Shown piece by piece: positions 1,943 through 50,642 of a stretch of DNA of 64,000 nt; positions within the stretch are counted from its first letter, which is position 1; every line of letters starts with the position of its first letter. Source of the stretch: an uncultured Candidatus Saccharibacteria bacterium. GTDB lineage: Bacteria > Patescibacteriota > Doudnabacteria > UBA920. Location: assembly GCA_964512925.1 (NCBI GenBank), contig CAZEKH010000005.1, forward strand, positions 4,325 through 68,324. Direction: 5' to 3'. The notes under the pieces were generated by a model. It worked only from the letters and a program-made list of their open reading frames with translations. It ran no database searches and was not told the origin of the DNA. A program made the position numbers and the translations under genes.

Positions 1943-2497
1943 ATGAAAACTATCAATCTGCTGCCAAAAAACCGCCAGGAAGAGCTATTTTACGCAAACA
2001 TTCTTTATGTTTTATATCGCGTGATTTTTGTTTCGTTTTTGTGTTTTTTCGCGGTGCTGTTCAGCCAGCTGGCAACCAAAGTTTATTTATCCCGCCAGGC
2101 GGAGGATTTGAAATCGCAGATAGAATTGCTAAAGCAAAAAGCCGGAGATAGGGATATAACGGTTTTAAAACAAAAAATTCTGGAAGTCAACCAAAACATT
2201 TCCGATTATAAGACTTTGGCGACCACTTTGCCAAAATGGTCAAAGGTCATTGCCAGATTTTCCCAAATGCCTCCGGAAGGACTGCTGGTCAATTCTATGG
2301 CCATAGACGTGAACAGAAAAACCATTACCATCACTGGTTTCAGCCCAACCCGCGAGCTGGTCATTGAGCTGTTTGAAAAAATCAAAGCCGACAAAGAGTA
2401 TTTTATGGATATAAATTATCCGTTTGAAAATGTTGCAAAGGCAACCGAGGTGTCTTTCCACTTTACTTTTTCGGTAAAAGAGGAGGCTTTAAAATAA
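1943..2497 (+). CDS. pilN: PilN-like fimbrial assembly protein
   Basis: 184 aa; starts 'MKTINLLPKNRQ', single N-terminal TM, coiled coil; 1-nt spacing after pilM. Confidence 0.65.
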   Translation: MKTINLLPKNRQEELFYANILYVLYRVIFVSFLCFFAVLFSQLATKVYLSRQAEDLKSQIELLKQKAGDRDITVLKQKILEVNQNISDYKTLATTLPKWSKVIARFSQMPPEGLLVNSMAIDVNRKTITITGFSPTRELVIELFEKIKADKEYFMDINYPFENVAKATEVSFHFTFSVKEEALK

Positions 2498-3049
2498 ATG
2501 AAAAGCATATCTTCTAAAAACAAAATTTTTATTTCTTTAGGCGCGTGGCTTTTAACCTGCTTATTTTTGTTTATGATAGGTTTTAGATATCTGGAAAATT
2601 CCAATACCAGAGCCTTTGAATTTAATGGCGCGCTTTTAAAAGAAGAGCGGCAGCTGAATTTGGAGAAAGAAAGCTACGAAAAAGCCAAAAAAGATTTAAC
2701 TGAGCTGGAAAAAAGACCCATCCAGCCAGAAAACTTTTTTAGTCGCGATACCACGCTTGTCAATGAAATCAAATATTTGGAAGATTTGGGGAAAAATCTA
2801 AATTTGGATTTACAGCTGTCCGGTATCAGCGGCACAATCGGCAACGCCGCAAAATCCGTATCTCACGGCGGGCTCTTGTCTGTTCCTTATAGTATCACTG
2901 CCAAAGGCAGTTTTGCCCAGCTGGCTAAGCTGGCAGAAAATTTGGAAAATATGCCTTTTTTAACCACTATCAACGGTATGACCATATATGCCGCCGAGTT
3001 AGGCAATGTTAATATGACCATCTCGTCTAATTTTTATTTGAAAAAATAA
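2498..3049 (+). CDS. PilO-like pilus assembly protein (bitopic, coiled-coil)
   Basis: 183 aa; N-terminal TM + coiled coil; abuts pilN stop. Confidence 0.45.
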   Translation: MKSISSKNKIFISLGAWLLTCLFLFMIGFRYLENSNTRAFEFNGALLKEERQLNLEKESYEKAKKDLTELEKRPIQPENFFSRDTTLVNEIKYLEDLGKNLNLDLQLSGISGTIGNAAKSVSHGGLLSVPYSITAKGSFAQLAKLAENLENMPFLTTINGMTIYAAELGNVNMTISSNFYLKK

Positions 3050-3051
3050 AT

Positions 3052-3342
3052 ATGCCTTCAATAGTTTTAAAATTTAAAAATTTCTTTTCAACTTCCAATG
3101 GCTTGCAAAAGCAATTAAGCTTGGTGTTTGTGGCTATGCTCTTGGCTGTGATATTTTTCTGCGGTTTTAGTATTAAGAGAAGTGTGGATTTGGTGTTGAA
3201 TGTGCCAGAAGCTCCGGTAGGAAAAAAACCCGGAGTCAGGGTGGATTTTCAGGGTTATGATGCTGTCATAGACAGAATGGAAAAAGTAAAAAAATTTACT
3301 CCGAATATTAAGATAGAACGCAATCCTTTCGGCGTAAAGTAG
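3052..3342 (+). CDS. small membrane protein, last gene of the pilus cluster (PilP-like?)
   Basis: 96 aa, one TM helix; tightly packed after pilO; followed by a terminator. Confidence 0.3.
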   Translation: MPSIVLKFKNFFSTSNGLQKQLSLVFVAMLLAVIFFCGFSIKRSVDLVLNVPEAPVGKKPGVRVDFQGYDAVIDRMEKVKKFTPNIKIERNPFGVK

Positions 3343-3362
3343 GCCTAAAGCCCACTAAATTT

Positions 3363-3392
3363 CCAGCCTTGTGTTTTGGGCTGGTTTTTTTT
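3363..3392 (+). terminator. rho-independent terminator of the pil cluster
   Basis: stem CCAGCC/GGCTGG followed by T8. Confidence 0.55.
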
Positions 3393-3460
3393 ATACTAAG
3401 CATACTGATTTAGTGGTTTTTGTGATTGGAGGTTTGGCTTTTTGCCCCGCTAAATTGTAT

Positions 3461-3537
3461 GTGTCCGTAGCTCATTTGGATAGAGCGCTTGGCTTCGAAC
3501 CAAGAGGTAGTAGGTTCAAATCCTACCGGACACACCA
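3461..3537 (+). tRNA. tRNA-Arg (anticodon TCG), CCA encoded
   Basis: acceptor GTGTCCG/CGGACAC; D arm GCTC..GAGC; anticodon stem CTTGG/CCAAG with loop CTTCGAA; T arm GTAGG-TTCAAAT-CCTAC; ACCA. Confidence 0.8.
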
Positions 3538-9879: not shown

Positions 9880-12555
9880 ATGTTCTGGCACCAACTTACA
9901 AAAACACAGTTAGAAAATGAACTTAAAACTAATTTTGAAACAGGACTTACTTCTGAAGAAGCGCAGGTTAGGCTTAAAAAATATGGGCTAAATGCTTTGC
10001 CCGAGGCGCCGAGAGAAACTTGGCTGACAGTCTTTTTATCCCAGTTTAAAAGCCCCTTAATATATATGCTAGTGGCTTGTTCACTGGTAGTTTTTTTACT
10101 TGGGGACTCGGCTGATGCCGGGATTATTTTGGTTGTGCTGATAATTAACGCGCTTATAGGCGCGTACCAGGAAGGTAAAAGCGGAAAAATACTGGAATCT
10201 CTAAAAAAATTGTCAAAGGCTGAAGCAACGGTTTTAAGGGATGGGCGCAAAGAAGTGGTGCAAGAGCAGTTGGTGGTGCCCGGCGATATTATGCTTCTCT
10301 CAGAAGGGCAAAAAATTGTAGCTGACGGCAGAGTCATCTTTAGTAGCAGCTTGGGTATGGACGAGTCTATGCTGACAGGGGAGTCCGGTTCAGTGATGAA
10401 AAATGAAGCTGTGTTGGCAGAAGAAGTTTTAAGCGCGGCGCAGAAGCATAATATGGTGTTTAAAGGCACAAATGTGTTAACCGGAGACGGTAAGGCTGTG
10501 GCAGTGGCAACAGGACAAAAAACGGAAATGGGCAAGATAGCCCAAAGTTTGATGCTGCCTCCTGAAGAAATTCCGCTACAAAAAAATATCCGGGCATTTT
10601 CCGAACTTTTGGTAAAAGTGGTTTCCGTGATCGGGGTTTTGGTTTTTGTTTTCGGCTTGCTGATAGGCCGGGATGCAAGGGAAATGTTTTCTTTGGTCGT
10701 GTCGTTGACGGTTTCTACCATTCCCGAAGGGTTGCCTTTGGTTTTAACCGTGATCTTGGCAACGGGCGTGTACAGGATGAGCAAAAAAAATGCTTTGGTA
10801 AAAAAGATGCAGGCTGTAGAAGCCCTGGGCCAGGCGGAAGTTATTGCCGTGGACAAGACCGGGACCATCACCAAAAACGAAATGATAGTAAAAAAACTTT
10901 TTTTAGGCGATAGGATTTATGAGGTTAGCGGGAGCGGCTATGAGCCGCAAGGCGGGGTGATGCTTGCCGGTGAAAGCAAAAATCACGATGAAGATGTTTT
11001 GTGGGCTGCGGTTTTGGGTTCTTTATCAACCAAAGGCGAAGCGATTTTTCAAGAAAACGAGAGTGTTTATAAAGTGGTGGGCGATCCGACCGAGGCGGCT
11101 GTTTCTGTGTTTGGCTCCAAATTGGGCAAAAGCAGAAGAGATCTTTTGACGGTTTTTAAGGAAGTGGAAGAAATACCTTTTGATTATAAAAACAAGTATC
11201 GGGCTGTGTATTTTGAGCACGGCGGAAAATATTTATGCGCGGTTTTGGGCGCCGCAGAAGTTTTGCATAAAAATAGCGACAAATTTTTATCGGCAGGACA
11301 GCAGAAAAAGATTTCCGCTTTGGAAAGTGAAAAAATAATCGCGGCTGAAGAAGAGTTTGCAGGCAGGGGACTAAGGGCAGTTGCTGTGGGGTATAAATGG
11401 TCGGATAAAAAAGATATAGAAAATGGGATTGTTAATCTTACTTTTGCCGGTATTTTTGGCATAGAAGATTCGGTCCGTCCTGAGGCTTTAGAAGCGGTAA
11501 AAAAAGCCAGGGAGCTTGGCGTAAAAATTGTGATGATAACCGGCGATCATAAGCAAACCGCAAGATCGATAGCCAAGGAAGCAGGGATTTTTTTTGAGGG
11601 TGATGAGATTATAACCGGACAAGAACTTGCCGCCGCCAGCGATGCAAATTTAATATCGCGTCTGGAAAAAACCTCGGTGTTTGCCCGCATTACCCCTGAA
11701 GATAAAATGCGAATAATAAATCTTTACAAGCGGGGCGGTAAGATAGTGGCAATGACCGGAGACGGGGTCAATGACGCTCCGTCTTTAGTAGCGGCTGATT
11801 TAGGCGTGGCAATGGGCAGGATTGGGACTGAGGTAGCCAAGGAAGCCGGGGATATCGTGCTTTTAGATGACAATCTGATGAGCATCGTATCTGCTATTTC
11901 CGAGGGTAGAGTTATGTATCGCAATATAAAAAAGACCTTGCAATTTATTTTCTCCACCGCCTCAGCCGCGCTTTTGACTATTGTGGCTTCTCTGGCTTTC
12001 AATATGCCTCTGCCTGTTTTGGCAGTTCAAATTTTGTGGCTCAATTTGGTTACGGATCCGCTTTTAGGTATTGCTTTGGCTACGGAAAAAAGCGAGCACA
12101 ATGCAGAAATGCGCCTTACAAAAGGCTTTTCTAAACATTTTGTGGACAAGCAGATGGCTATACATATGGTGTTGGTTTCAGTGGTGATGGCAGCTGGCAC
12201 TTTGTATTTATTTAACGTGTATAGACCGGTAAACGAAACTCTCGCGAGGTCGGTTGCGTTGACTGCATTGTGCGCTTTTCAGTGGGTAAATGCTTTTAAC
12301 TGCCGGTTTTTAGAACGCAGTATTTTGAGTGTTAGAATTTTCTCAAATAAACTTGTTTGGCTAGCATTTTTTATGAATATCGGCCTGCAGATTTTTGCTT
12401 TACATACCCCGTTTATGCAAAAAATATTAAAAACCCAAGGCCTCGGCAGCAGGGAATGGGTTTTTATAGCAGTTATATCTCTGGTTATAATTATATTGGA
12501 TGAAATTAGAAAATATTTTGTCAGAAGGCCTTACCGCAAAGTCGCGACTGTGTGA
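9880..12555 (+). CDS. cation-transporting P-type ATPase (Ca2+/Mg2+ type IIA-like)
   Basis: 891 aa; DKTGTIT phosphorylation motif, TGDGVNDAPSL hinge motif, 10 TM topology. Confidence 0.85.
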   Translation: MFWHQLTKTQLENELKTNFETGLTSEEAQVRLKKYGLNALPEAPRETWLTVFLSQFKSPLIYMLVACSLVVFLLGDSADAGIILVVLIINALIGAYQEGKSGKILESLKKLSKAEATVLRDGRKEVVQEQLVVPGDIMLLSEGQKIVADGRVIFSSSLGMDESMLTGESGSVMKNEAVLAEEVLSAAQKHNMVFKGTNVLTGDGKAVAVATGQKTEMGKIAQSLMLPPEEIPLQKNIRAFSELLVKVVSVIGVLVFVFGLLIGRDAREMFSLVVSLTVSTIPEGLPLVLTVILATGVYRMSKKNALVKKMQAVEALGQAEVIAVDKTGTITKNEMIVKKLFLGDRIYEVSGSGYEPQGGVMLAGESKNHDEDVLWAAVLGSLSTKGEAIFQENESVYKVVGDPTEAAVSVFGSKLGKSRRDLLTVFKEVEEIPFDYKNKYRAVYFEHGGKYLCAVLGAAEVLHKNSDKFLSAGQQKKISALESEKIIAAEEEFAGRGLRAVAVGYKWSDKKDIENGIVNLTFAGIFGIEDSVRPEALEAVKKARELGVKIVMITGDHKQTARSIAKEAGIFFEGDEIITGQELAAASDANLISRLEKTSVFARITPEDKMRIINLYKRGGKIVAMTGDGVNDAPSLVAADLGVAMGRIGTEVAKEAGDIVLLDDNLMSIVSAISEGRVMYRNIKKTLQFIFSTASAALLTIVASLAFNMPLPVLAVQILWLNLVTDPLLGIALATEKSEHNAEMRLTKGFSKHFVDKQMAIHMVLVSVVMAAGTLYLFNVYRPVNETLARSVALTALCAFQWVNAFNCRFLERSILSVRIFSNKLVWLAFFMNIGLQIFALHTPFMQKILKTQGLGSREWVFIAVISLVIIILDEIRKYFVRRPYRKVATV

Positions 12556-17072: not shown

Positions 17073-17354
17073 ATGAATATTGAACAAGAAATTGAAAAAA
17101 TCACTCAGCGGAATAAAAGGGTTGAAGAAGATAAAGCCTGGGAGACCAGTTTTTTTAGACGGGGATTTATAGCGGTTATTACTTATTTAGCTGCCTGGTC
17201 GTGGCTTATGCTGATTCACGAGCCGCTTTCTTTCCTAAAAGCTTTGGTTCCGGTGTTCGGTTTTTTAATTTCCACTTTTTCTTTGCCAATTTTAAAATCC
17301 AGATGGATAAAAAATCAACTTTCCAATTCGCGCGAATTGGAAAGTGAAAGGTAA
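17073..17354 (+). CDS. hypothetical small membrane protein (start chosen at internal Met of ORF 17046..17354)
   Basis: two predicted TM helices. Confidence 0.3.
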   Translation: MNIEQEIEKITQRNKRVEEDKAWETSFFRRGFIAVITYLAAWSWLMLIHEPLSFLKALVPVFGFLISTFSLPILKSRWIKNQLSNSRELESER

Positions 17355-18720: not shown

Positions 18721-18794
18721 TATACACAGACACAAATTTTAGAGACTGTTAAATAATTATTCTGACATTCTTGAGAATGTCAGAATAATGTGGA

Positions 18795-45989: not shown

Positions 45990-46796
45990 ATGGTCAATAA
46001 TTTATTTCAAAGTTTTATTTTAGGAGCGGTTCAGGGGCTTGGTGAGTTTTTGCCTATTTCTTCTTCCGGGCATTTGGTGCTTGTCCATGCGTTGTTTAAA
46101 AAAGATTTAGGTCTGGGTTTTGACGTTATGCTCCACTTAGGAACTCTTATTGCAGTCGTCTTTTATTTCAGGCAAGATATTTTAAACATGGCCCGCGGGT
46201 TTTGGCACAGTCTTTTTAGAAAGACAAGAGATTTAAGTAGTATTTACCAAAAATTACCCATAATGGTTCTAGTCGCCACACTGCCGGCGGTTATTTTTGG
46301 AATAATCTTAAAACCATACGCGGAAACAATATTTAGAAACCCGGTTTTAGTAGCCCTTTCTTTAGCTGTTTTTGGTATTGTGATTTGGCTTTCTGAAAAA
46401 TTCGGTAAAAAAAGTTTAGATTTAAACAGCATTACTTTGAAGAGCGCTTTGGTTATTGGTTGGTTTCAGGCTTTGGCAATTGTTCCCGGAGTTTCCAGAA
46501 GCGGCGCAACTATTGCGGCCGCTATGTTTTTGGCATATAAACGGCCAGACGCAGCGCGCTTTAGTTTTTTGCTTTCATTGCCAATAATTTTTGGCGCTGT
46601 GCTTGTTGAAGCTAATAATATTGAGCTTTCTGAAATAAATTTAGAATTAGCAGTAGGTTTTATTAGCTCCCTGTTTTTTGGTTTTTTTGCTATTAAATAT
46701 TTACTTAAATATATTTCAAAAAACAGCTTCAATGTTTTTGTCTGGTATAGGCTCGCTTTGTCAGGTTTGATTTTATTGGTATATTATTTAAAATAA
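45990..46796 (+). CDS. uppP: undecaprenyl-diphosphate phosphatase
   Basis: 268 aa; 'GLGEFLPISSSGHL' and 'PGVSRSGATI' BacA motifs. Confidence 0.85.
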   Translation: MVNNLFQSFILGAVQGLGEFLPISSSGHLVLVHALFKKDLGLGFDVMLHLGTLIAVVFYFRQDILNMARGFWHSLFRKTRDLSSIYQKLPIMVLVATLPAVIFGIILKPYAETIFRNPVLVALSLAVFGIVIWLSEKFGKKSLDLNSITLKSALVIGWFQALAIVPGVSRSGATIAAAMFLAYKRPDAARFSFLLSLPIIFGAVLVEANNIELSEINLELAVGFISSLFFGFFAIKYLLKYISKNSFNVFVWYRLALSGLILLVYYLK

Positions 46797-46813
46797 TCAC
46801 CTTAAAAAGATTG

Positions 46814-46849
46814 CTGTCAATCGTAACACATATGTGTCATAGTTGACAG
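46814..46849. promoter_or_regulatory. nested palindrome CTGTCAA..ACACATATGTGT..TTGACAG upstream of the PAP2 gene
   Basis: shares GTCAA-N-CACATATGTG-N-TTGAC architecture with 50263..50294. Confidence 0.35.
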
Positions 46850-46882
46850 GAATTTGTTTTGATGGGAATTTGAATTGAAATT

Positions 46883-47413
46883 ATGAACATTGATTTTTCA
46901 GATCAACAATATTTAGCCTGGCAGGGGAGACTGAAATCGGATAAAATTTTCCGATTGTTTTGGACTTTTTGCGCGGTGTACTTGGTAGGAGTGTTTTATC
47001 TGTCGGCGATATTTTTACTTTTTCAAGAACATAGGCGGATGCTGGTTCTGTCTGTTATTTCTTTTGTTCTGGCTAGGCTGATTTTTTCTGAGATCGTATA
47101 TCTGTTTTACAAAAGACAAAGGCCTTTTCAGCGTCTTGGGTTTTTGCCTCCCTTTTCGCCTTTGTTTTTGAGCGTGAATTTAAAACGTCCCGACAGTATG
47201 CCTTCTGGCCACGCTGCCAGTTTGGTTGCTGTGAGTTTGGTTTGCTGGTATTTTTTCCCTATTGTCGGAAGTTTGGGGTTCATTGCCTCAGTTTTAAATT
47301 CTATGGGTAGAGTGGTGTGGGGATATCATTATAACTCTGACATTTTAGCTGGTTGGGTTTTGGGCTTTTTAACCAGCGGTTTTGTGCTTTACCTAATGGA
47401 AAGAATTTGGTAA
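46883..47413 (+). CDS. PAP2-family phosphatase (type 2 phosphatidic acid/undecaprenyl-PP phosphatase fold)
   Basis: 176 aa; 'PSGHAA' and 'YHYNSD' PAP2 motifs. Confidence 0.7.
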   Translation: MNIDFSDQQYLAWQGRLKSDKIFRLFWTFCAVYLVGVFYLSAIFLLFQEHRRMLVLSVISFVLARLIFSEIVYLFYKRQRPFQRLGFLPPFSPLFLSVNLKRPDSMPSGHAASLVAVSLVCWYFFPIVGSLGFIASVLNSMGRVVWGYHYNSDILAGWVLGFLTSGFVLYLMERIW

Positions 47414-47429
47414 AATAAGGTTTAGTTTG

Positions 47430-47513
47430 GGCCGAGTGGTGGAATGGCAGACACAAACGACTCAAAATCGTTCGCTTAACGGCATGAGGGTTCGACTCCC
47501 TCCTCGGCCACCA
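47430..47513 (+). tRNA. tRNA-Leu (anticodon CAA), long variable arm, CCA encoded
   Basis: GGCCGAG acceptor, anticodon arm AACGA-CTCAAAA-TCGTT, variable arm CGCTTAACGGCATG, T arm GAGGG-TTCGACT-CCCTC. Confidence 0.85.
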
Positions 47514-47533
47514 AAATTATTTAAAATAAACAG

Positions 47534-48538
47534 ATGGACAGTGTTATTCCTGTTACACAAATACCACAAAATTCTACTAACGAATCTTCGAATTCGCTTG
47601 TTCCTTCAGGATACCCTGGAACTGCTACAACGCAGGATTTTTTAGCAAATGACAACCCGTTTCAGCCCCAAGTTCCTAATGCGCTTAAAGCGGAAGAAAA
47701 AAATCTTTCTGAAGACAGAGTTTCTTACGCTGACGCAAAAATCCAGGAAATTGAAGTTTCTAAAATAGTTGCCAACCCTTTCCAGCCAAGAAAAACTTTT
47801 AACCCGGAGGCTTTAAAGGAGTTGGCTGATTCTATCCGCGAACACGGGGTGATTCAGCCTTTGGTGGTTACCGAAACACCAAATGGTTATGAAATTGTGG
47901 TAGGGGAAAGGCGTTTTCGGGCAAGCCAGCTGGCTGGTCTTTTGAAAGTTCCAGCTATCGTAAAAAGCCAGATGGTGGACCAGACTAAGCTGGAAGTAGC
48001 GCTCATAGAAAACATCCAAAGGCAGGAGTTAAATCCTATAGAAGAAGCGATGGCCTATGACAGGCTAATGAAGACTTTTGACTTGACCCAAGACCAGGTG
48101 GCAAAGAAAGTTGGAAAGTCGAGGCCCGCAGTTGCCAACACTGTCAGGCTCTTAAACCTGCCTGCGGAAATCCAAAGAGCTTTGATAGAAGGCAAAATCA
48201 CCGAAGGGCACGCCAGGGCGCTTTTGGGGCTCATAGACAAAGACAAGATGCTTTTAATGTTTCAGAAGATCCAGGAAGAAGGTTTAAATGTGCGCCAGGT
48301 GGAGCTGAAAGTCCGCGAGCTTTCCATCCGCAGGCGGATGGACGCGGCAATGCCCGACCCAAAGCTGATGGCGCTTGAAACCGAGCTTCGCGGCCGTTTG
48401 GGCACCCAGGTGAAGATCCAAAAACAAGGCACCGGCGGCAGGATCACTATAGAATATTTTTCCGAAGACGAGCTAAATGAGATCATCCATAAAATGGCAG
48501 AAAATAAAAATCAGGATAGCCAATATTTAACGGTTTAA
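47534..48538 (+). CDS. parB: ParB/Spo0J chromosome partitioning protein with ~60-aa low-complexity N-terminal extension
   Basis: 'IVANPFQPRKTF', 'GVIQPLVVTE..YEIVVGERRFRA' ParB box, HTH 'QVAKKVGKSRPAVANTVRLL'. Confidence 0.85.
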   Translation: MDSVIPVTQIPQNSTNESSNSLVPSGYPGTATTQDFLANDNPFQPQVPNALKAEEKNLSEDRVSYADAKIQEIEVSKIVANPFQPRKTFNPEALKELADSIREHGVIQPLVVTETPNGYEIVVGERRFRASQLAGLLKVPAIVKSQMVDQTKLEVALIENIQRQELNPIEEAMAYDRLMKTFDLTQDQVAKKVGKSRPAVANTVRLLNLPAEIQRALIEGKITEGHARALLGLIDKDKMLLMFQKIQEEGLNVRQVELKVRELSIRRRMDAAMPDPKLMALETELRGRLGTQVKIQKQGTGGRITIEYFSEDELNEIIHKMAENKNQDSQYLTV

Positions 48539-48620
48539 AACATATATCCTTGGCCTTTGATTTTTAAGCTTTTTCAGATTTTACCTATTTTTTTAAGTGC
48601 TTTTTATCTCAGTCTCTGTT

Positions 48621-48644
48621 GTCATTCCCGCGAAAGCGGGAATC
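48621..48644. repeat. TCCCG/CGGGA hairpin element (GTCATTCCCGCGAAAGCGGGAATC)
   Basis: 8-bp perfect stem. Confidence 0.5.
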
Positions 48645-48704
48645 TAAGTTTGAGAGAATTTTCGGTACTAACAGATATAAACTGTTTTTCTGTGGAAAAC
48701 TGCA

Positions 48705-48733
48705 TTTGACAAGTTTTTGCTAGGGGTATAATA
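48705..48733 (+). promoter_or_regulatory. near-consensus sigma70 promoter (TTGACA-N15/17-TATAAT)
   Basis: gcatTTGACAagtttttgctaggggTATAATat. Confidence 0.55.
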
Positions 48734-48739
48734 TATATA

Positions 48740-48893
48740 AAATCTATGCAAAGAAATTTTTCCCACAACCTCATTATTTCTCTCCCGGTCGTCAAGACCT
48801 GGGTGTTTAAAATGCGGGGTAGTGTGGGAAAGAAAAGATAACAGTAGTATAAGTAAAGTTTCCACACCATACCCCGCAAAGAGCGGGTTTTTT
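48740..48893 (+). ncRNA. candidate ~150-nt small RNA between the consensus promoter and an intrinsic terminator (identity unknown)
   Basis: no credible ORF or SD; TTTCCCACAACC pairs GGTAGTGTGGGAAA with alternative partner TTTCCACACC; terminator CCCCGC-AAAGA-GCGGG + T7 at 48871..48893. Confidence 0.35.
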
Positions 48894-49010
48894 TCTGGGT
48901 AAGAGAAACTTAGAGAAATAGAATGTTAGAGAATTAGAGAGATAGAGTGTTAGAGAGGAAGAAAGTTAGCAAAGTAGATAAAATGAACTTTAAAAATTTT
49001 TTGTAGTTTT

Positions 49011-49128
49011 ACCCCCTCTCCCGTGTGGGAGAGGGTTGGGGTGAGGTTTCAGCGATGGTAATAAAACCAAGGTTTGTTATTATCAAACATTATTACCTCA
49101 CCCTAGCCCTCTCCGTGATCGGAGAGGG
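49011..49128. repeat. symmetric composite of two palindromic elements in opposite orientation around an AT-rich inner hairpin
   Basis: CCCTCTCCCGTGTGGGAGAGGG+TTGGGGTGAGGT ... ACCTCACCCTAGC+CCTCTCCGTGATCGGAGAGG. Confidence 0.65.
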
Positions 49129-49475
49129 AATCTGAAAAAGGCTTGAAATATTTATTATTTGTTCTTTAAAACTTAACACCAACCGCCCACAAAAGTTTTT
49201 CCAACAATTGATTTACTGATTATCAGATATTCTGATCAACTTGGAACTTCTTTTGTGTGCAGTCCGTTTGTTTTTATTTCTTTTCCTCCCGCTGGTCGGG
49301 ACGGACACAAGATGGAATCTCATTCCAAAGCACATAAAAACAAAAAAGGCACACGAAAGTTTGGGCAGATCTTGGCTTACCAGCCACTAAAAAATCCCGT
49401 TTTCAAAATTCGGGATTCTGCCCATAGCTATCCGGGCCGCGCAATTTGCTGGCCCATTCGTTCGAGGAGGAAAAA

Positions 49476-49679
49476 GTGGATAGACCAAAGGCATCCACGG
49501 GTGTTGGTCAAAAATTTTGTCAAAGTTGTCGTAGAACTTCAACTTTCATCACCGTGCAAGGTGACGGACATGAGATTGAAGTTTGTGAAAACTGTTTGAC
49601 AAACGGCGAACCAATATCTAGATTCAACGATCCGGATTATGCTTCGGATGTATCGGCCATGAGACTAATCATGGTCTAA
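49476..49679 (+). CDS. hypothetical small zinc-ribbon protein (GTG start after GGAGG SD)
   Basis: 67 aa; CQSC..(17)..CENC; locally GC-rich patch. Confidence 0.3.
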   Translation: MDRPKASTGVGQKFCQSCRRTSTFITVQGDGHEIEVCENCLTNGEPISRFNDPDYASDVSAMRLIMV

Positions 49680-49808
49680 CCAGCAACAGACTTAAAGAGC
49701 AAGTACTTGGGTAGTACCCTGCAATTATACCGCTCTTCAGGTCTTAACCCCGGGGTTCACCAGCTGACCACCATCGGCTAGTGGATCCCGGGCCACTCAA
49801 TTTTTTCT

Positions 49809-49846
49809 TCCTCTCCGTTATCGGAGAGGGTAGGGTGAGGTAACGG
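49809..49846. repeat. palindromic element (CCTCTCCGTTATCGGAGAGG + GTAGGGTGAGGTAACGG)
   Basis: same family, reverse orientation. Confidence 0.65.
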
Positions 49847-50013
49847 ACTCAAAATTCAAATCAGATTTATAAATCATTTAAACTTAAAATCCCCATTTTG
49901 GTTGGGAATGACGGAAAAAACATAAAAATTTCATACCCCCAAAAACCTATTAAATTTTTTGATAAGTTCTTGGGCGCATGAAAGCGCTCGATATTGGTTT
50001 TGTTGGAGGAACA

Positions 50014-50169
50014 ATGAGTGACACTAAACCGCAGGAGCCTGCAATTCGCGCCACAAATAAGGGTCTTAAAAAACCCCGACCACATTACGAGGTCGTAGTA
50101 CACCCGGAAACCCGGAGTGTGGATGTGATCCTAAAACCGTGCGAAGAATGCAAAACCTGCAAGACCTGA
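50014..50169 (+). CDS. hypothetical small Cys-rich protein (C-terminal CEECKTCKT)
   Basis: 51 aa from internal ATG with GGAGGAACAATG SD; followed by strong terminator. Confidence 0.35.
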   Translation: MSDTKPQEPAIRATNKGLKKPRPHYEVVVHPETRSVDVILKPCEECKTCKT

Positions 50170-50179
50170 CAGGTTTTTA

Positions 50180-50252
50180 GGCAGAGCCGCTACTAATTTA
50201 GTCTTTCTTAGACTTTTTTAGCAGAGGCTCTGCCACTATTTTTTTTATTTTT
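50180..50252 (+). terminator. long nested hairpin GGCAGAGCC..AGTCTTTCTTAGACT..GGCTCTGCC followed by T-rich run
   Basis: 9-bp outer stem + inner palindrome + TTTTTTTTATTTTT. Confidence 0.55.
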
Positions 50253-50262
50253 AAATTCGGGT

Positions 50263-50294
50263 GTCAAACTAGTCACATATGTGACTAGTTTGAC
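50263..50294. promoter_or_regulatory. perfect 32-bp palindrome GTCAAACTAGTCACATATGTGACTAGTTTGAC
   Basis: fully self-complementary; architecture shared with 46814..46849. Confidence 0.4.
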
Positions 50295-50308
50295 AGAGGT
50301 TGGGTTTT

Positions 50309-50452: not shown

Positions 50453-50473
50453 TTTTTTATTTGGTCGGGATGC
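50453..50473 (-). pseudogene. copy of the tRNA-Pro 3' terminus (acceptor 3' strand + CCA + flanking T-run), 20/21 identical
   Basis: TTTTTTATTTGGTCGGGATGC vs TTTTTTCTATGGTCGGGATGC at 50560..50580; then a non-tRNA hairpin CCCCGAC..GTCGGGG. Confidence 0.5.
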
Positions 50474-50568
50474 CCCGACGACCACTTCGTGATGTCGGGG
50501 TAAACTGGGTATTTCCAACAACCTATAACCATAGAAAAAAGCGCGACACAAGAACACACTTTTTTCTA

Positions 50569-50642
50569 TGGTCGGGATGCTGGGAATCGAACCCAGACTA
50601 CATCCACCCCATGGACGCGTACTACCACTATACTACATCCCG
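50569..50642 (-). tRNA. tRNA-Pro (anticodon GGG), CCA encoded
   Basis: reverse complement: CGGGATG acceptor, D arm GTAT-AGTGGTA-GTAC, anticodon arm CGTCC-ATGGGGT-GGATG, T arm CTGGG-TTCGATT-CCCAG, CATCCCG-A-CCA. Confidence 0.8.

Follow-up and report, generated by a model that had tools for sequence, protein, structure and literature searches.

A dispersed extragenic palindrome with conserved boxes and covarying spacers in some Patescibacteria, a possible REP-like hairpin element

Background

What is the function of a palindrome that stands twice, on either side of a 3.4-kb segment, among unrelated genes of a reduced bacterial genome? This question is raised by a 64-kb stretch of DNA from a member of Patescibacteria (the candidate phyla radiation, CPR), which is called the window throughout this text. 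Two of its intergenic regions each contain a site with outer arms GTCAA and TTGAC placed symmetrically around the same central core. The original prediction, made from the letters of the window alone, regarded these sites as operators of a dimeric transcription factor. Cis-acting DNA and RNA signals are nearly undescribed in Patescibacteria, which are mostly uncultured and have few recognisable regulators.

Our results describe a dispersed, low-copy family of extragenic palindromes, to which both sites belong. Its members have conserved boxes and mutually complementary, variable spacers, and are located preferentially at the 3' ends of genes. Because of these properties we compare the family with known extragenic repeats and weigh several explanations of its function.

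Results

Two copies of one palindrome in the window

Both sites match the pattern TGTCAA-N6-CACATATGTG-N6-TTGACA. Site 1 (46815-46848) is an imperfect copy, TGTCAA-TCGTAA-CACATATGTG-TCATAG-TTGACA, located in the 86-nt intercistronic gap between the genes for BacA/UppP and a PAP2 phosphatase, 19 nt past the stop codon of the former and 35 nt before the start codon of the latter. With its flanking C and G it makes up the 36-bp site (46814-46849) given in the original prediction. The outer arms CTGTCAA/TTGACAG and the inner ACACATATGTGT are perfect, while the two 6-nt spacers are non-complementary, forming two Watson-Crick pairs, two wobbles and two mismatches. Site 2 (50262-50295) reads TGTCAAACTAGTCACATATGTGACTAGTTTGACA, with perfect symmetry over its 34 bp; on one side is the terminator of a small plus-strand open reading frame (ORF), on the other the downstream region of a minus-strand tRNA-Pro gene. 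It begins 22 nt past a canonical hairpin-plus-T-run terminator and lies 274 nt from the 3' end of the tRNA-Pro. The outer boxes GTCAA are found at 46816-46820 and 50263-50267, their partners TTGAC at 46843-46847 and 50290-50294, and the central boxes CACATATGTG at 46827-46836 and 50274-50283, all as delimited in an alignment of 17 copies described below.

The shared arms and core had thus been seen correctly, as had the context of the sites, upstream of the PAP2 gene and after a terminator; the palindrome at site 2 is perfect as described and extends one base further on each side than the 32 bp first assigned to it. With up to three mismatches allowed, the full pattern matches the window at exactly these two places (100 shuffles give an expectation of 0.00), and the looser TGTCAA-N18-26-TTGACA recovers the same two sites only (0.04 expected). 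A covariance model built from 17 family members gives 58 bits to site 2 and 53 bits to site 1, the next match in the window reaching 16 bits (E 0.03). No Rfam family overlaps either site, even at E values up to 1.

The family in other genomes

About 185,000 GTDB species genomes were scanned with the pattern GTCAA-N5-9-CACATATGTG-N5-9-TTGAC, which yielded 15 loci. Ten of them belong to three metagenome-assembled genomes (MAGs) of Patescibacteria, and every one has 6+6 spacing: four lie on contigs of a Doudnabacteria MAG, four on contigs of WY2.bin63 and two on contigs of FK_Sedi_B_Bin.374. A Saccharibacteria MAG carries a version with shorter, 5+5 spacers (L014). The other four matches look like chance; by our own estimate, about 0.5 chance matches are expected per fixed-spacing scan. 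The exact motif is present in only three or four of the species genomes scanned. A scan of metagenomes added four CPR-type copies, two of which (L023 and L025) are identical to site 2 in 34 of 34 positions, and comparison of the loci by BLAST brought to light a further, fifth copy from Doudnabacteria: L004b, with a single mismatch in its core, had escaped the pattern and lies 373 bp from its neighbour L004a. Two to five copies per genome are seen in at least three other Patescibacteria MAGs. The unit is a dyad of 34-44 bp, which usually extends to 38-44 bp as TTTTGTCAAAC...GTTTGACAAAA or TTTTAGTCAAC...GTTGACTAAAA. Nothing similar was found by a scan of viral contigs or by BLAST against phages and plasmids. 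In the literature the core sequence matched only primers and unrelated items, and no description of the element was found.

Conserved boxes and covarying spacers

The foot of the palindrome, GTCAA/TTGAC, and its apex, CACATATGTG, are invariant, and the 6-bp spacer between them is free in sequence yet self-complementary. Variants ACTAGT, ACGAGT/ACTCGT, AGGAGT/ACTCCT, ACAATA/TATTGT, CTACCC/GGGTAG and ACACCC/GGGTGT occur, so that the 6-nt spacers differ among copies and are nearly always exact reverse complements of each other. In the alignment of 17 copies 94% of the cells are paired, eight of the 18 pairs vary on both sides and 45 cells are compensated. This pairing signal was reached by none of 500 shuffles and no slid register comes near it; intermediates of the G-U type are almost absent from the spacers. 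Compensated variants coexist within one genome, as illustrated by L004a (CTACCC/GGGTAG) and L004b (ACACCC/GGGTGT) and by L010 and L011, again from a single MAG. Insertions and deletions are symmetric too, both in the 5+5 spacers of L014 and in a version from L029, a parB locus of a Doudnabacteria relative, in which GTCAA...TTGAC spans 30 bp. As spacer variants are compensated and changes of length are symmetric, it is self-complementarity itself that is maintained. Protein contacts limited to the boxes would not produce symmetric spacers, which points to pairing within one strand rather than to the contacts of a dimer alone.

Site 1 presents the complementary case. All 24 of its 24 box positions are intact in spite of at least four substitutions that break pairing in the spacers, and the chance of such a split is about 0.008 (our own hypergeometric estimate). 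The boxes therefore matter independently of pairing. Solo half-sites are absent from the 305 kb searched; the element is always a complete dyad. Moreover, the same spacer variant recurs at different loci of one genome, ACGAGT three times in WY2.bin63 and ACTAGT twice in the organism of L023 and L025. Such concerted variants, each particular to its genome, are the pattern classically seen in families of repetitive extragenic palindromic sequences (REPs).

Position, retention and turnover

All copies are intergenic. Among 13 independent loci, none lies between divergent genes and 12 abut at least one gene 3' end. Convergent gaps hold five to seven of 11-13 loci, compared with 16% of long-intergenic bases in the same sequences (P 0.02 to 0.002). 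In the usual layouts a stop codon is followed either by a canonical terminator and, 20-50 nt further, by the palindrome, or by the palindrome itself after 16-45 nt. Adjoining genes are unrelated (gatB, rplL, rpoD, dcd/folA-thyA, ppa, guaA and genes for a HAD hydrolase and a sortase), and the left neighbour of the L012, L020 and L023 copies lacks conservation at the protein level. No consistent -10 box was found 16-18 nt past the TTGAC arms of 11 copies. At L005, 56 nt separate the end of the copy from the -35 box of a clear TTGACA-N17-TATAAT promoter, which lies downstream and belongs to the next gene. Position at 3' ends and unrelated neighbours are the opposite of what an operator with its regulon predicts.

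Two orthologous intergenic regions could be compared in three genomes each, at 73-91% nucleotide identity: the gap between the genes for inorganic pyrophosphatase and a hydrolase, and the stretch near tRNA-Ser that follows a HAD hydrolase gene. Nothing but the canonical terminator and the palindrome can be aligned in either, and the palindrome varies solely by a symmetric G/T-C/A change. This retention amid diverged flanks indicates purifying selection or homogenisation.

The locus in the window offers a view of turnover. The gene between the two sites (47534-48538) codes for a complete ParB with N-terminal, helix-turn-helix and C-terminal domains; its homologues carry the names Patescibacteria or Doudnabacteria, and the type is present in thousands of clusters. 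Nine parB loci, whose ParB proteins are 66-83% identical and which share the synteny SHMT-BacA/PAP2-ParB...S12-S7-EF-G, served for comparison. Both window copies are missing from all nine, which keep the same genes, and in eight of them neither pattern search nor covariance model finds a copy within 10 kb of parB. L029 alone has a related element, TTGGTCAAATTTGGACGATCGTCCAAATTTGACCAA, a 36-bp palindrome 16 nt past the parB stop codon, with the outer arms of the window motif, a different core and GTCAA...TTGAC spanning 30 bp, not 32. The BacA-PAP2 junction measures 0-3 nt or overlaps in four relatives (L002, L027, L029 and L030), holds site 1 in the window and is occupied by an unrelated hairpin in L031. 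The gap in the window therefore looks like an insertion, and palindromes of this kind seem to be gained by insertion. The inserted unit as a whole probably corresponds to an extended imperfect palindrome around site 1 (46804-46859; 31-nt arms, 77% complementary). The family thus appears and disappears between lineages. The original prediction had let its operator depend on further sites and on conservation in relatives, and here the outcome is divided: the two window sites are not conserved in the syntenic relatives, and many further, conserved sites are present in other genomes.

Predicted folding

Folded as a single strand, site 2 forms a 15-bp stem with an ATAT loop (DNA hairpin -14.9 kcal/mol, z -7.9; RNA -23.4 and -23.3 kcal/mol on the two strands). 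Site 1 yields a weaker DNA hairpin (-8.6 kcal/mol, z -3.6) and an RNA fold of -18.1 kcal/mol on the plus, sense strand against -14.1 kcal/mol on the minus strand. The extended copies fold to -18 to -19 kcal/mol as DNA and to -34 kcal/mol as RNA. A strand difference is also seen in L017, with -20.0 kcal/mol on the sense (minus) strand and -14.9 kcal/mol on the other, three A-C mismatches becoming G-U pairs, and in L006 (-34.5 versus -28.3 kcal/mol), where the sense strand is ambiguous. The better fold of the sense strand in imperfect copies favours, in a small sample, a function in RNA or in single-stranded DNA of the lagging-strand template, identical in sequence for co-oriented genes. The stem has about 35% G+C and, on both strands, is preceded by a T-run and followed by an A-run.

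Other features of the loci

The surroundings of parB contain several further features. Genes for tRNA-Leu(caa) and tRNA-Pro(ggg) flank it (47430-47513 and 50569-50642 in the window), and each is found in either orientation among L001, L002, L003 and L027-L030; these genes flip among close relatives while the orientation of parB and of all flanking genes is constant. Degenerate 3' fragments of tRNA-Pro (TGGTCGGGATGCC...) with inserted hairpins adjoin the intact gene (window 50466-50520; L031 13290-13560) and resemble what tandem duplication of the tRNA, or integration events, would leave behind. On the 3' side of parB, at 48690-48895 in the window and also in L001, L002, L003, L028 and L029, a conserved DnaA-box-like TGTGGAAAA is directly followed by a TTGACA-N17-TATAAT promoter of a transcript of about 170 nt, which ends in the terminator CCCCGCAAAGAGCGGGTTTTTTT and has no match in Rfam. 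This transcript, syntenic with parB, is probably a previously undescribed gene for a non-coding RNA (ncRNA). The non-coding segment 48910-48969, likewise 3' of parB, is a short tandem repeat of TTAGAGAG-like units with a 24-nt super-period and 91% match. Small zinc-ribbon ORFs of the CxxC...CxxC type, without Pfam matches, lie between parB and tRNA-Pro and are conserved in the window and L029 (window 49477-49679 and 49978-50169; L029 11326-11560). A hairpin of the ATTCCC...GGGAAT type (GTCATTCCCGCGAAAGCGGGAATC) is located at 48618-48650, and a related form (L031 8625-8665) fills the BacA-PAP2 junction of L031; it may be another small dispersed repeat.

Unrelated perfect or near-perfect palindromes of 24-44 bp, with centres CGATCG, GGCC, TTCGAA or CGCG, abound in these CPR loci (window 17318-17345 and 18756-18789; L028 18257-18934; L029 14803-14844; L003 13071-13112; L004 3695-3732), and two copies of CTTCACTACTTCGAAGTAGTGAAG stand within 550 bp of each other in L028. 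As a general trait, these genomes seem to carry long symmetric palindromes.

Two site-bearing loci of other genomes deserve mention. In L004, a G+C-rich structured segment (3300-3530; minimum free energy -111.7 kcal/mol, z -6.9) lies within an AT-rich intergenic region, bracketed by two palindrome copies that are both inside a 62-nt direct repeat. It is likely an ncRNA, without a match in Rfam, as the overlying 80-aa ORF is not protein-like. In L006, on contig JBBRWU010000031.1 of the Doudnabacteria MAG, a CRISPR array (2233-3200) with at least fifteen 36-nt repeats ATCTACAAAAGTAGAAATTTTATATACGGATTTGAG and 26-nt spacers begins about 80 nt from the palindrome. Read in reverse complement, the repeat ends in AATTTCTACTTTTGTAGAT, the crRNA handle of the Cas12a type. 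A link between palindrome and array was considered and judged coincidental.

Discussion

Comparison with REP elements

The element can be described as an extragenic palindromic repeat, a clean and conserved cis element whose function we infer. Our tentative preference, which we hold with somewhat less than even confidence, is that the sites are copies of a REP-like hairpin element, dispersed at low copy number in some Patescibacteria, whose foot and apex are recognised by a putative factor. The element would work in single-stranded form, folded into a stem-loop of 15-20 bp. Most likely it would do so in RNA, namely in 3' untranslated regions, in read-through transcripts and, at site 1, in the intercistronic spacer; single-stranded DNA on the lagging-strand template would be the alternative. 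In either orientation the hairpin would serve as an exonuclease barrier or as an aid to processing or termination, uncoupling neighbouring transcription units. At site 1 it would keep apart bacA and the PAP2 gene, which form a tight operon in relatives. Site 2 lies in a convergent gap, with the small-ORF unit 3' of parB on one side and tRNA-Pro on the other; the location of the ParB gene between the two copies would be coincidental. A putative trans factor, be it a nuclease, an HUH-type enzyme or an RNA-binding protein, would read foot and apex, and may also copy the element into new terminator-proximal sites.

Likeness to REPs and to bacterial interspersed mosaic elements is considerable. Like these, the palindrome is a short, strictly extragenic hairpin, concentrated at gene 3' ends and in convergent gaps, with near-identical copies per genome and lineage-specific variants that carry compensatory changes in the stem. 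Orthologous positions bear the genome's own variant, distribution among relatives is patchy, and roles as mRNA-stabilising or insulating hairpins have been proposed. In length and structure (a hairpin palindrome of 20-45 nt), in repetition, in extragenic location and in 3' bias it agrees with REPs. Copy number is low, the asymmetric tag of the GTAG type is absent, the palindrome being two-fold symmetric with its flanks included, and its boxes are conserved across distant lineages, unlike REP families, which are usually species-specific.

Several observations weigh against a REP-like hairpin. Two to five copies per genome fragment compare poorly with the tens to hundreds of classical REPs. The full two-fold symmetry includes the ATAT centre, and a palindromic loop is unneeded for a hairpin on one strand but fits recognition of double-stranded DNA by a dimer. 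Not every copy needs pairing, as site 1 shows with its intact boxes and unpaired spacers. The search patterns required the boxes, whose invariance is therefore in part a matter of ascertainment, and L004b and L029 show that the core is able to change. Only three imperfect copies inform the strand argument, of which L006 is ambiguous, and a doubtful fourth (L021 2056, E 0.04) is biased in the opposite direction. Several copies, placed beyond a canonical terminator, may receive little transcription. Finally, searches around every copy and through the window found no gene for a Y1 (RAYT) transposase, a recombinase or another mobile element; for Y1_Tnp homologues they covered about 300 kb, comprising the window and the loci of other genomes, and L029 alone has one.

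This locus of a Doudnabacteria relative contains, at 876-1354 and 9895-9925, a 137-aa Y1_Tnp (RAYT-like) gene and inverted hairpins GTAG...GCCGAT(N2-4)ATCGGC, between which the gene lies, and a third copy of the GTAG...ATCGGC hairpin stands just upstream of parB. It is a genuine REP/RAYT system with GTAG/CTAC REPs, distinct from the palindrome studied here. The mechanism is therefore available in the clade, though with a different repeat.

A further reading, unlikely in our judgement, makes the palindrome the recognition site of a new system specific to Patescibacteria. It would be either the target of a protein that binds hairpins or cruciforms of fixed foot and apex and marks boundaries of transcription units, in effect a sequence-specific terminator or insulator, or a new minimal mobile hairpin without a linked transposase.

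Alternative explanations

The main competitor of a REP-like hairpin is a site bound, as double-stranded DNA, by a symmetric protein (a dimer or tetramer) of architectural, insulator or roadblock type, which would read GTCAA and CACAT in each half-site, occupy weakly transcribed gaps that separate transcription units and serve chromosome organisation or stop read-through between convergent genes. It is a serious candidate, though we consider it rather unlikely. Two-fold symmetry extends without flaw through the centre, and the invariant boxes keep a fixed spacing of 11 bp in each half-site. Both the intact boxes of site 1 with its unpaired spacers and the lack of solo half-sites suit such a protein, as does a copy number as low as that of matS-, NBS- or parS-type sites. 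Spacer variants shared within a genome and concerted change at orthologous loci are what one would expect of a co-evolving protein that reads the entire half-site, and the DNA could bend more readily with its T-run and A-run flanks, which are about three helical turns apart. What speaks against a duplex site are the compensated variants within one genome and the symmetric insertions and deletions: a protein blind to the spacer would not keep its symmetry, and one that reads the spacer would not accept several variants. The three conserved blocks, with centres 13.5 bp apart by our own geometric estimate, do not lie on one face of B-DNA, imperfect copies show the G-U bias of the sense strand, and no candidate gene for a binding protein is linked to any copy. 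The classical operator of the original prediction, acting on adjacent promoters so that, for example, site 1 would repress the PAP2 gene, retains dyad symmetry, a suitable length and half-site boxes that do appear to be recognised as sequence at fixed spacing. Site 1 also lies just downstream of a promoter-like TTGTCA-N16-TATATT (46758-46785), and the L014 copy is 63 nt upstream of a start codon. The rest of that claim is not supported, a judgement that rests on the absence of copies from divergent promoter regions, most being convergent or past terminators, on flanking genes without functional relation or coherent regulon, on the missing -10 box and the L005 copy placed well upstream of a promoter, on covarying spacers, on the lack of a linked regulator gene and on the absence of both window sites from the nine relatives with the same genes. 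We regard it as improbable.

Equally improbable are ordinary bidirectional intrinsic terminators or stabiliser hairpins that resemble one another through recent duplication and need no sequence-specific factor. Such terminators are, like the palindrome, stable hairpins between convergent genes, identical on both strands; copies do lie at 3' ends, these genomes are rich in long near-perfect palindromic terminators, and L004 3259-3302 is a terminator-like relative of the family. The flanks of the palindrome, however, are a T-run before and an A-run after the stem, the reverse of a terminator. It has neither a G+C-rich stem nor a U-tract, a canonical terminator usually adjoins it, and a terminator scan does not flag it. 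The same 32-40 nt recur at unrelated loci and genomes, whereas terminators differ from locus to locus, and the boxes of site 1 have outlived its pairing. Since the window contains no canonical parS, even at up to three mismatches anywhere in its length, a divergent, lineage-specific parS centromere for the ParB encoded between the sites was taken as the first hypothesis. Low copy number, palindromic structure, the flanking of parB and the L029 palindrome just past parB with the same outer arms agree with it. Yet ParB occurs in thousands of Patescibacteria clusters and the motif in a handful of species genomes; it is missing within 10 kb of parB in eight relatives, and other site-bearing loci have no ParB gene. 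With TGTTNCACGTGNAACA the palindrome has only TCAC/GTGA in common; it differs from parS in sequence and length, its half-sites are 4 bp further apart, and a variable, covarying spacer is not a property of parS. A shared 14-16 bp palindrome near parB was sought in four genomes and none was found. A centromere is thus very unlikely, and no better can be said of a crossover or binding site of a site-specific recombinase whose copies bracket an invertible or excisable segment. The 34-bp length, the ends TGTC...GACA and the central AT resemble resolvase/invertase or lox/FRT-type sites, the length and TGTC ends presumably recalling those of serine recombinases in particular. Two copies bracket parB, two bracket a 370-bp segment in L004, and the tRNA genes beside parB are flipped among relatives. 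Against this, neither the window nor any other locus shows a serine-recombinase signature, and the neighbouring genes include no recurrent recombinase family. Gene order and orientation between the window copies are those of relatives without sites, the tRNA flips do not coincide with sites, and crossover between the copies would delete essential genes.

Comparison with other conserved palindromes gives partial resemblances. CIRCE, the operator of HrcA (TTAGCACTC-N9-GAGTGCTAA), is likewise a highly conserved inverted repeat of fixed spacing, with few copies per genome and a wide taxonomic range, and is thought to act both as a DNA operator and as an RNA hairpin; unlike the palindrome, which lies at 3' ends of unrelated genes, it is found in promoters and 5' untranslated regions of a coherent chaperone regulon and has a non-covarying spacer. 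In attC sites of integrons, which are recognised as folded single strands, the boxes RYYYAAC...GTTRRRY (compare GTCAAAC...GTTTGAC, with one mismatch each) flank a free self-complementary region. The palindrome differs from attC in its length (32-44 versus 57-141 bp), in its lack of extrahelical bases or bulges, cassette arrays and an integrase, in its invariant apex and in its solitary copies among housekeeping genes. It has the defining features of neither.

A few other candidates were rejected. Outward-facing promoters with the TTGAC arm as -35 box had no consistent -10 box in the 11 copies and only weak matches in a promoter scan. A promoter of an extracytoplasmic function (ECF) sigma factor (AAC...CGT) fits the ACGAGT variant only. 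Mobile-element borders were dismissed because the genes between the window copies are syntenic with relatives and neither a Y1 transposase nor a recurrent mobile-element family lies near copies. The stem-loop arrays of TIGR-Tas systems in CPR bacteria are tandem arrays with box C/D motifs and are not comparable.

Conclusions

Recognition of the family guards against annotating the sites, wrongly, as "operator of the PAP2 gene" or "parS of ParB". If a system specific to Patescibacteria should prove true, the strictness with which distant CPR lineages conserve the element would be the mark of an essential function for the host. The palindrome is a concrete handle on how reduced genomes delimit their transcription units or carry small mobile hairpins.

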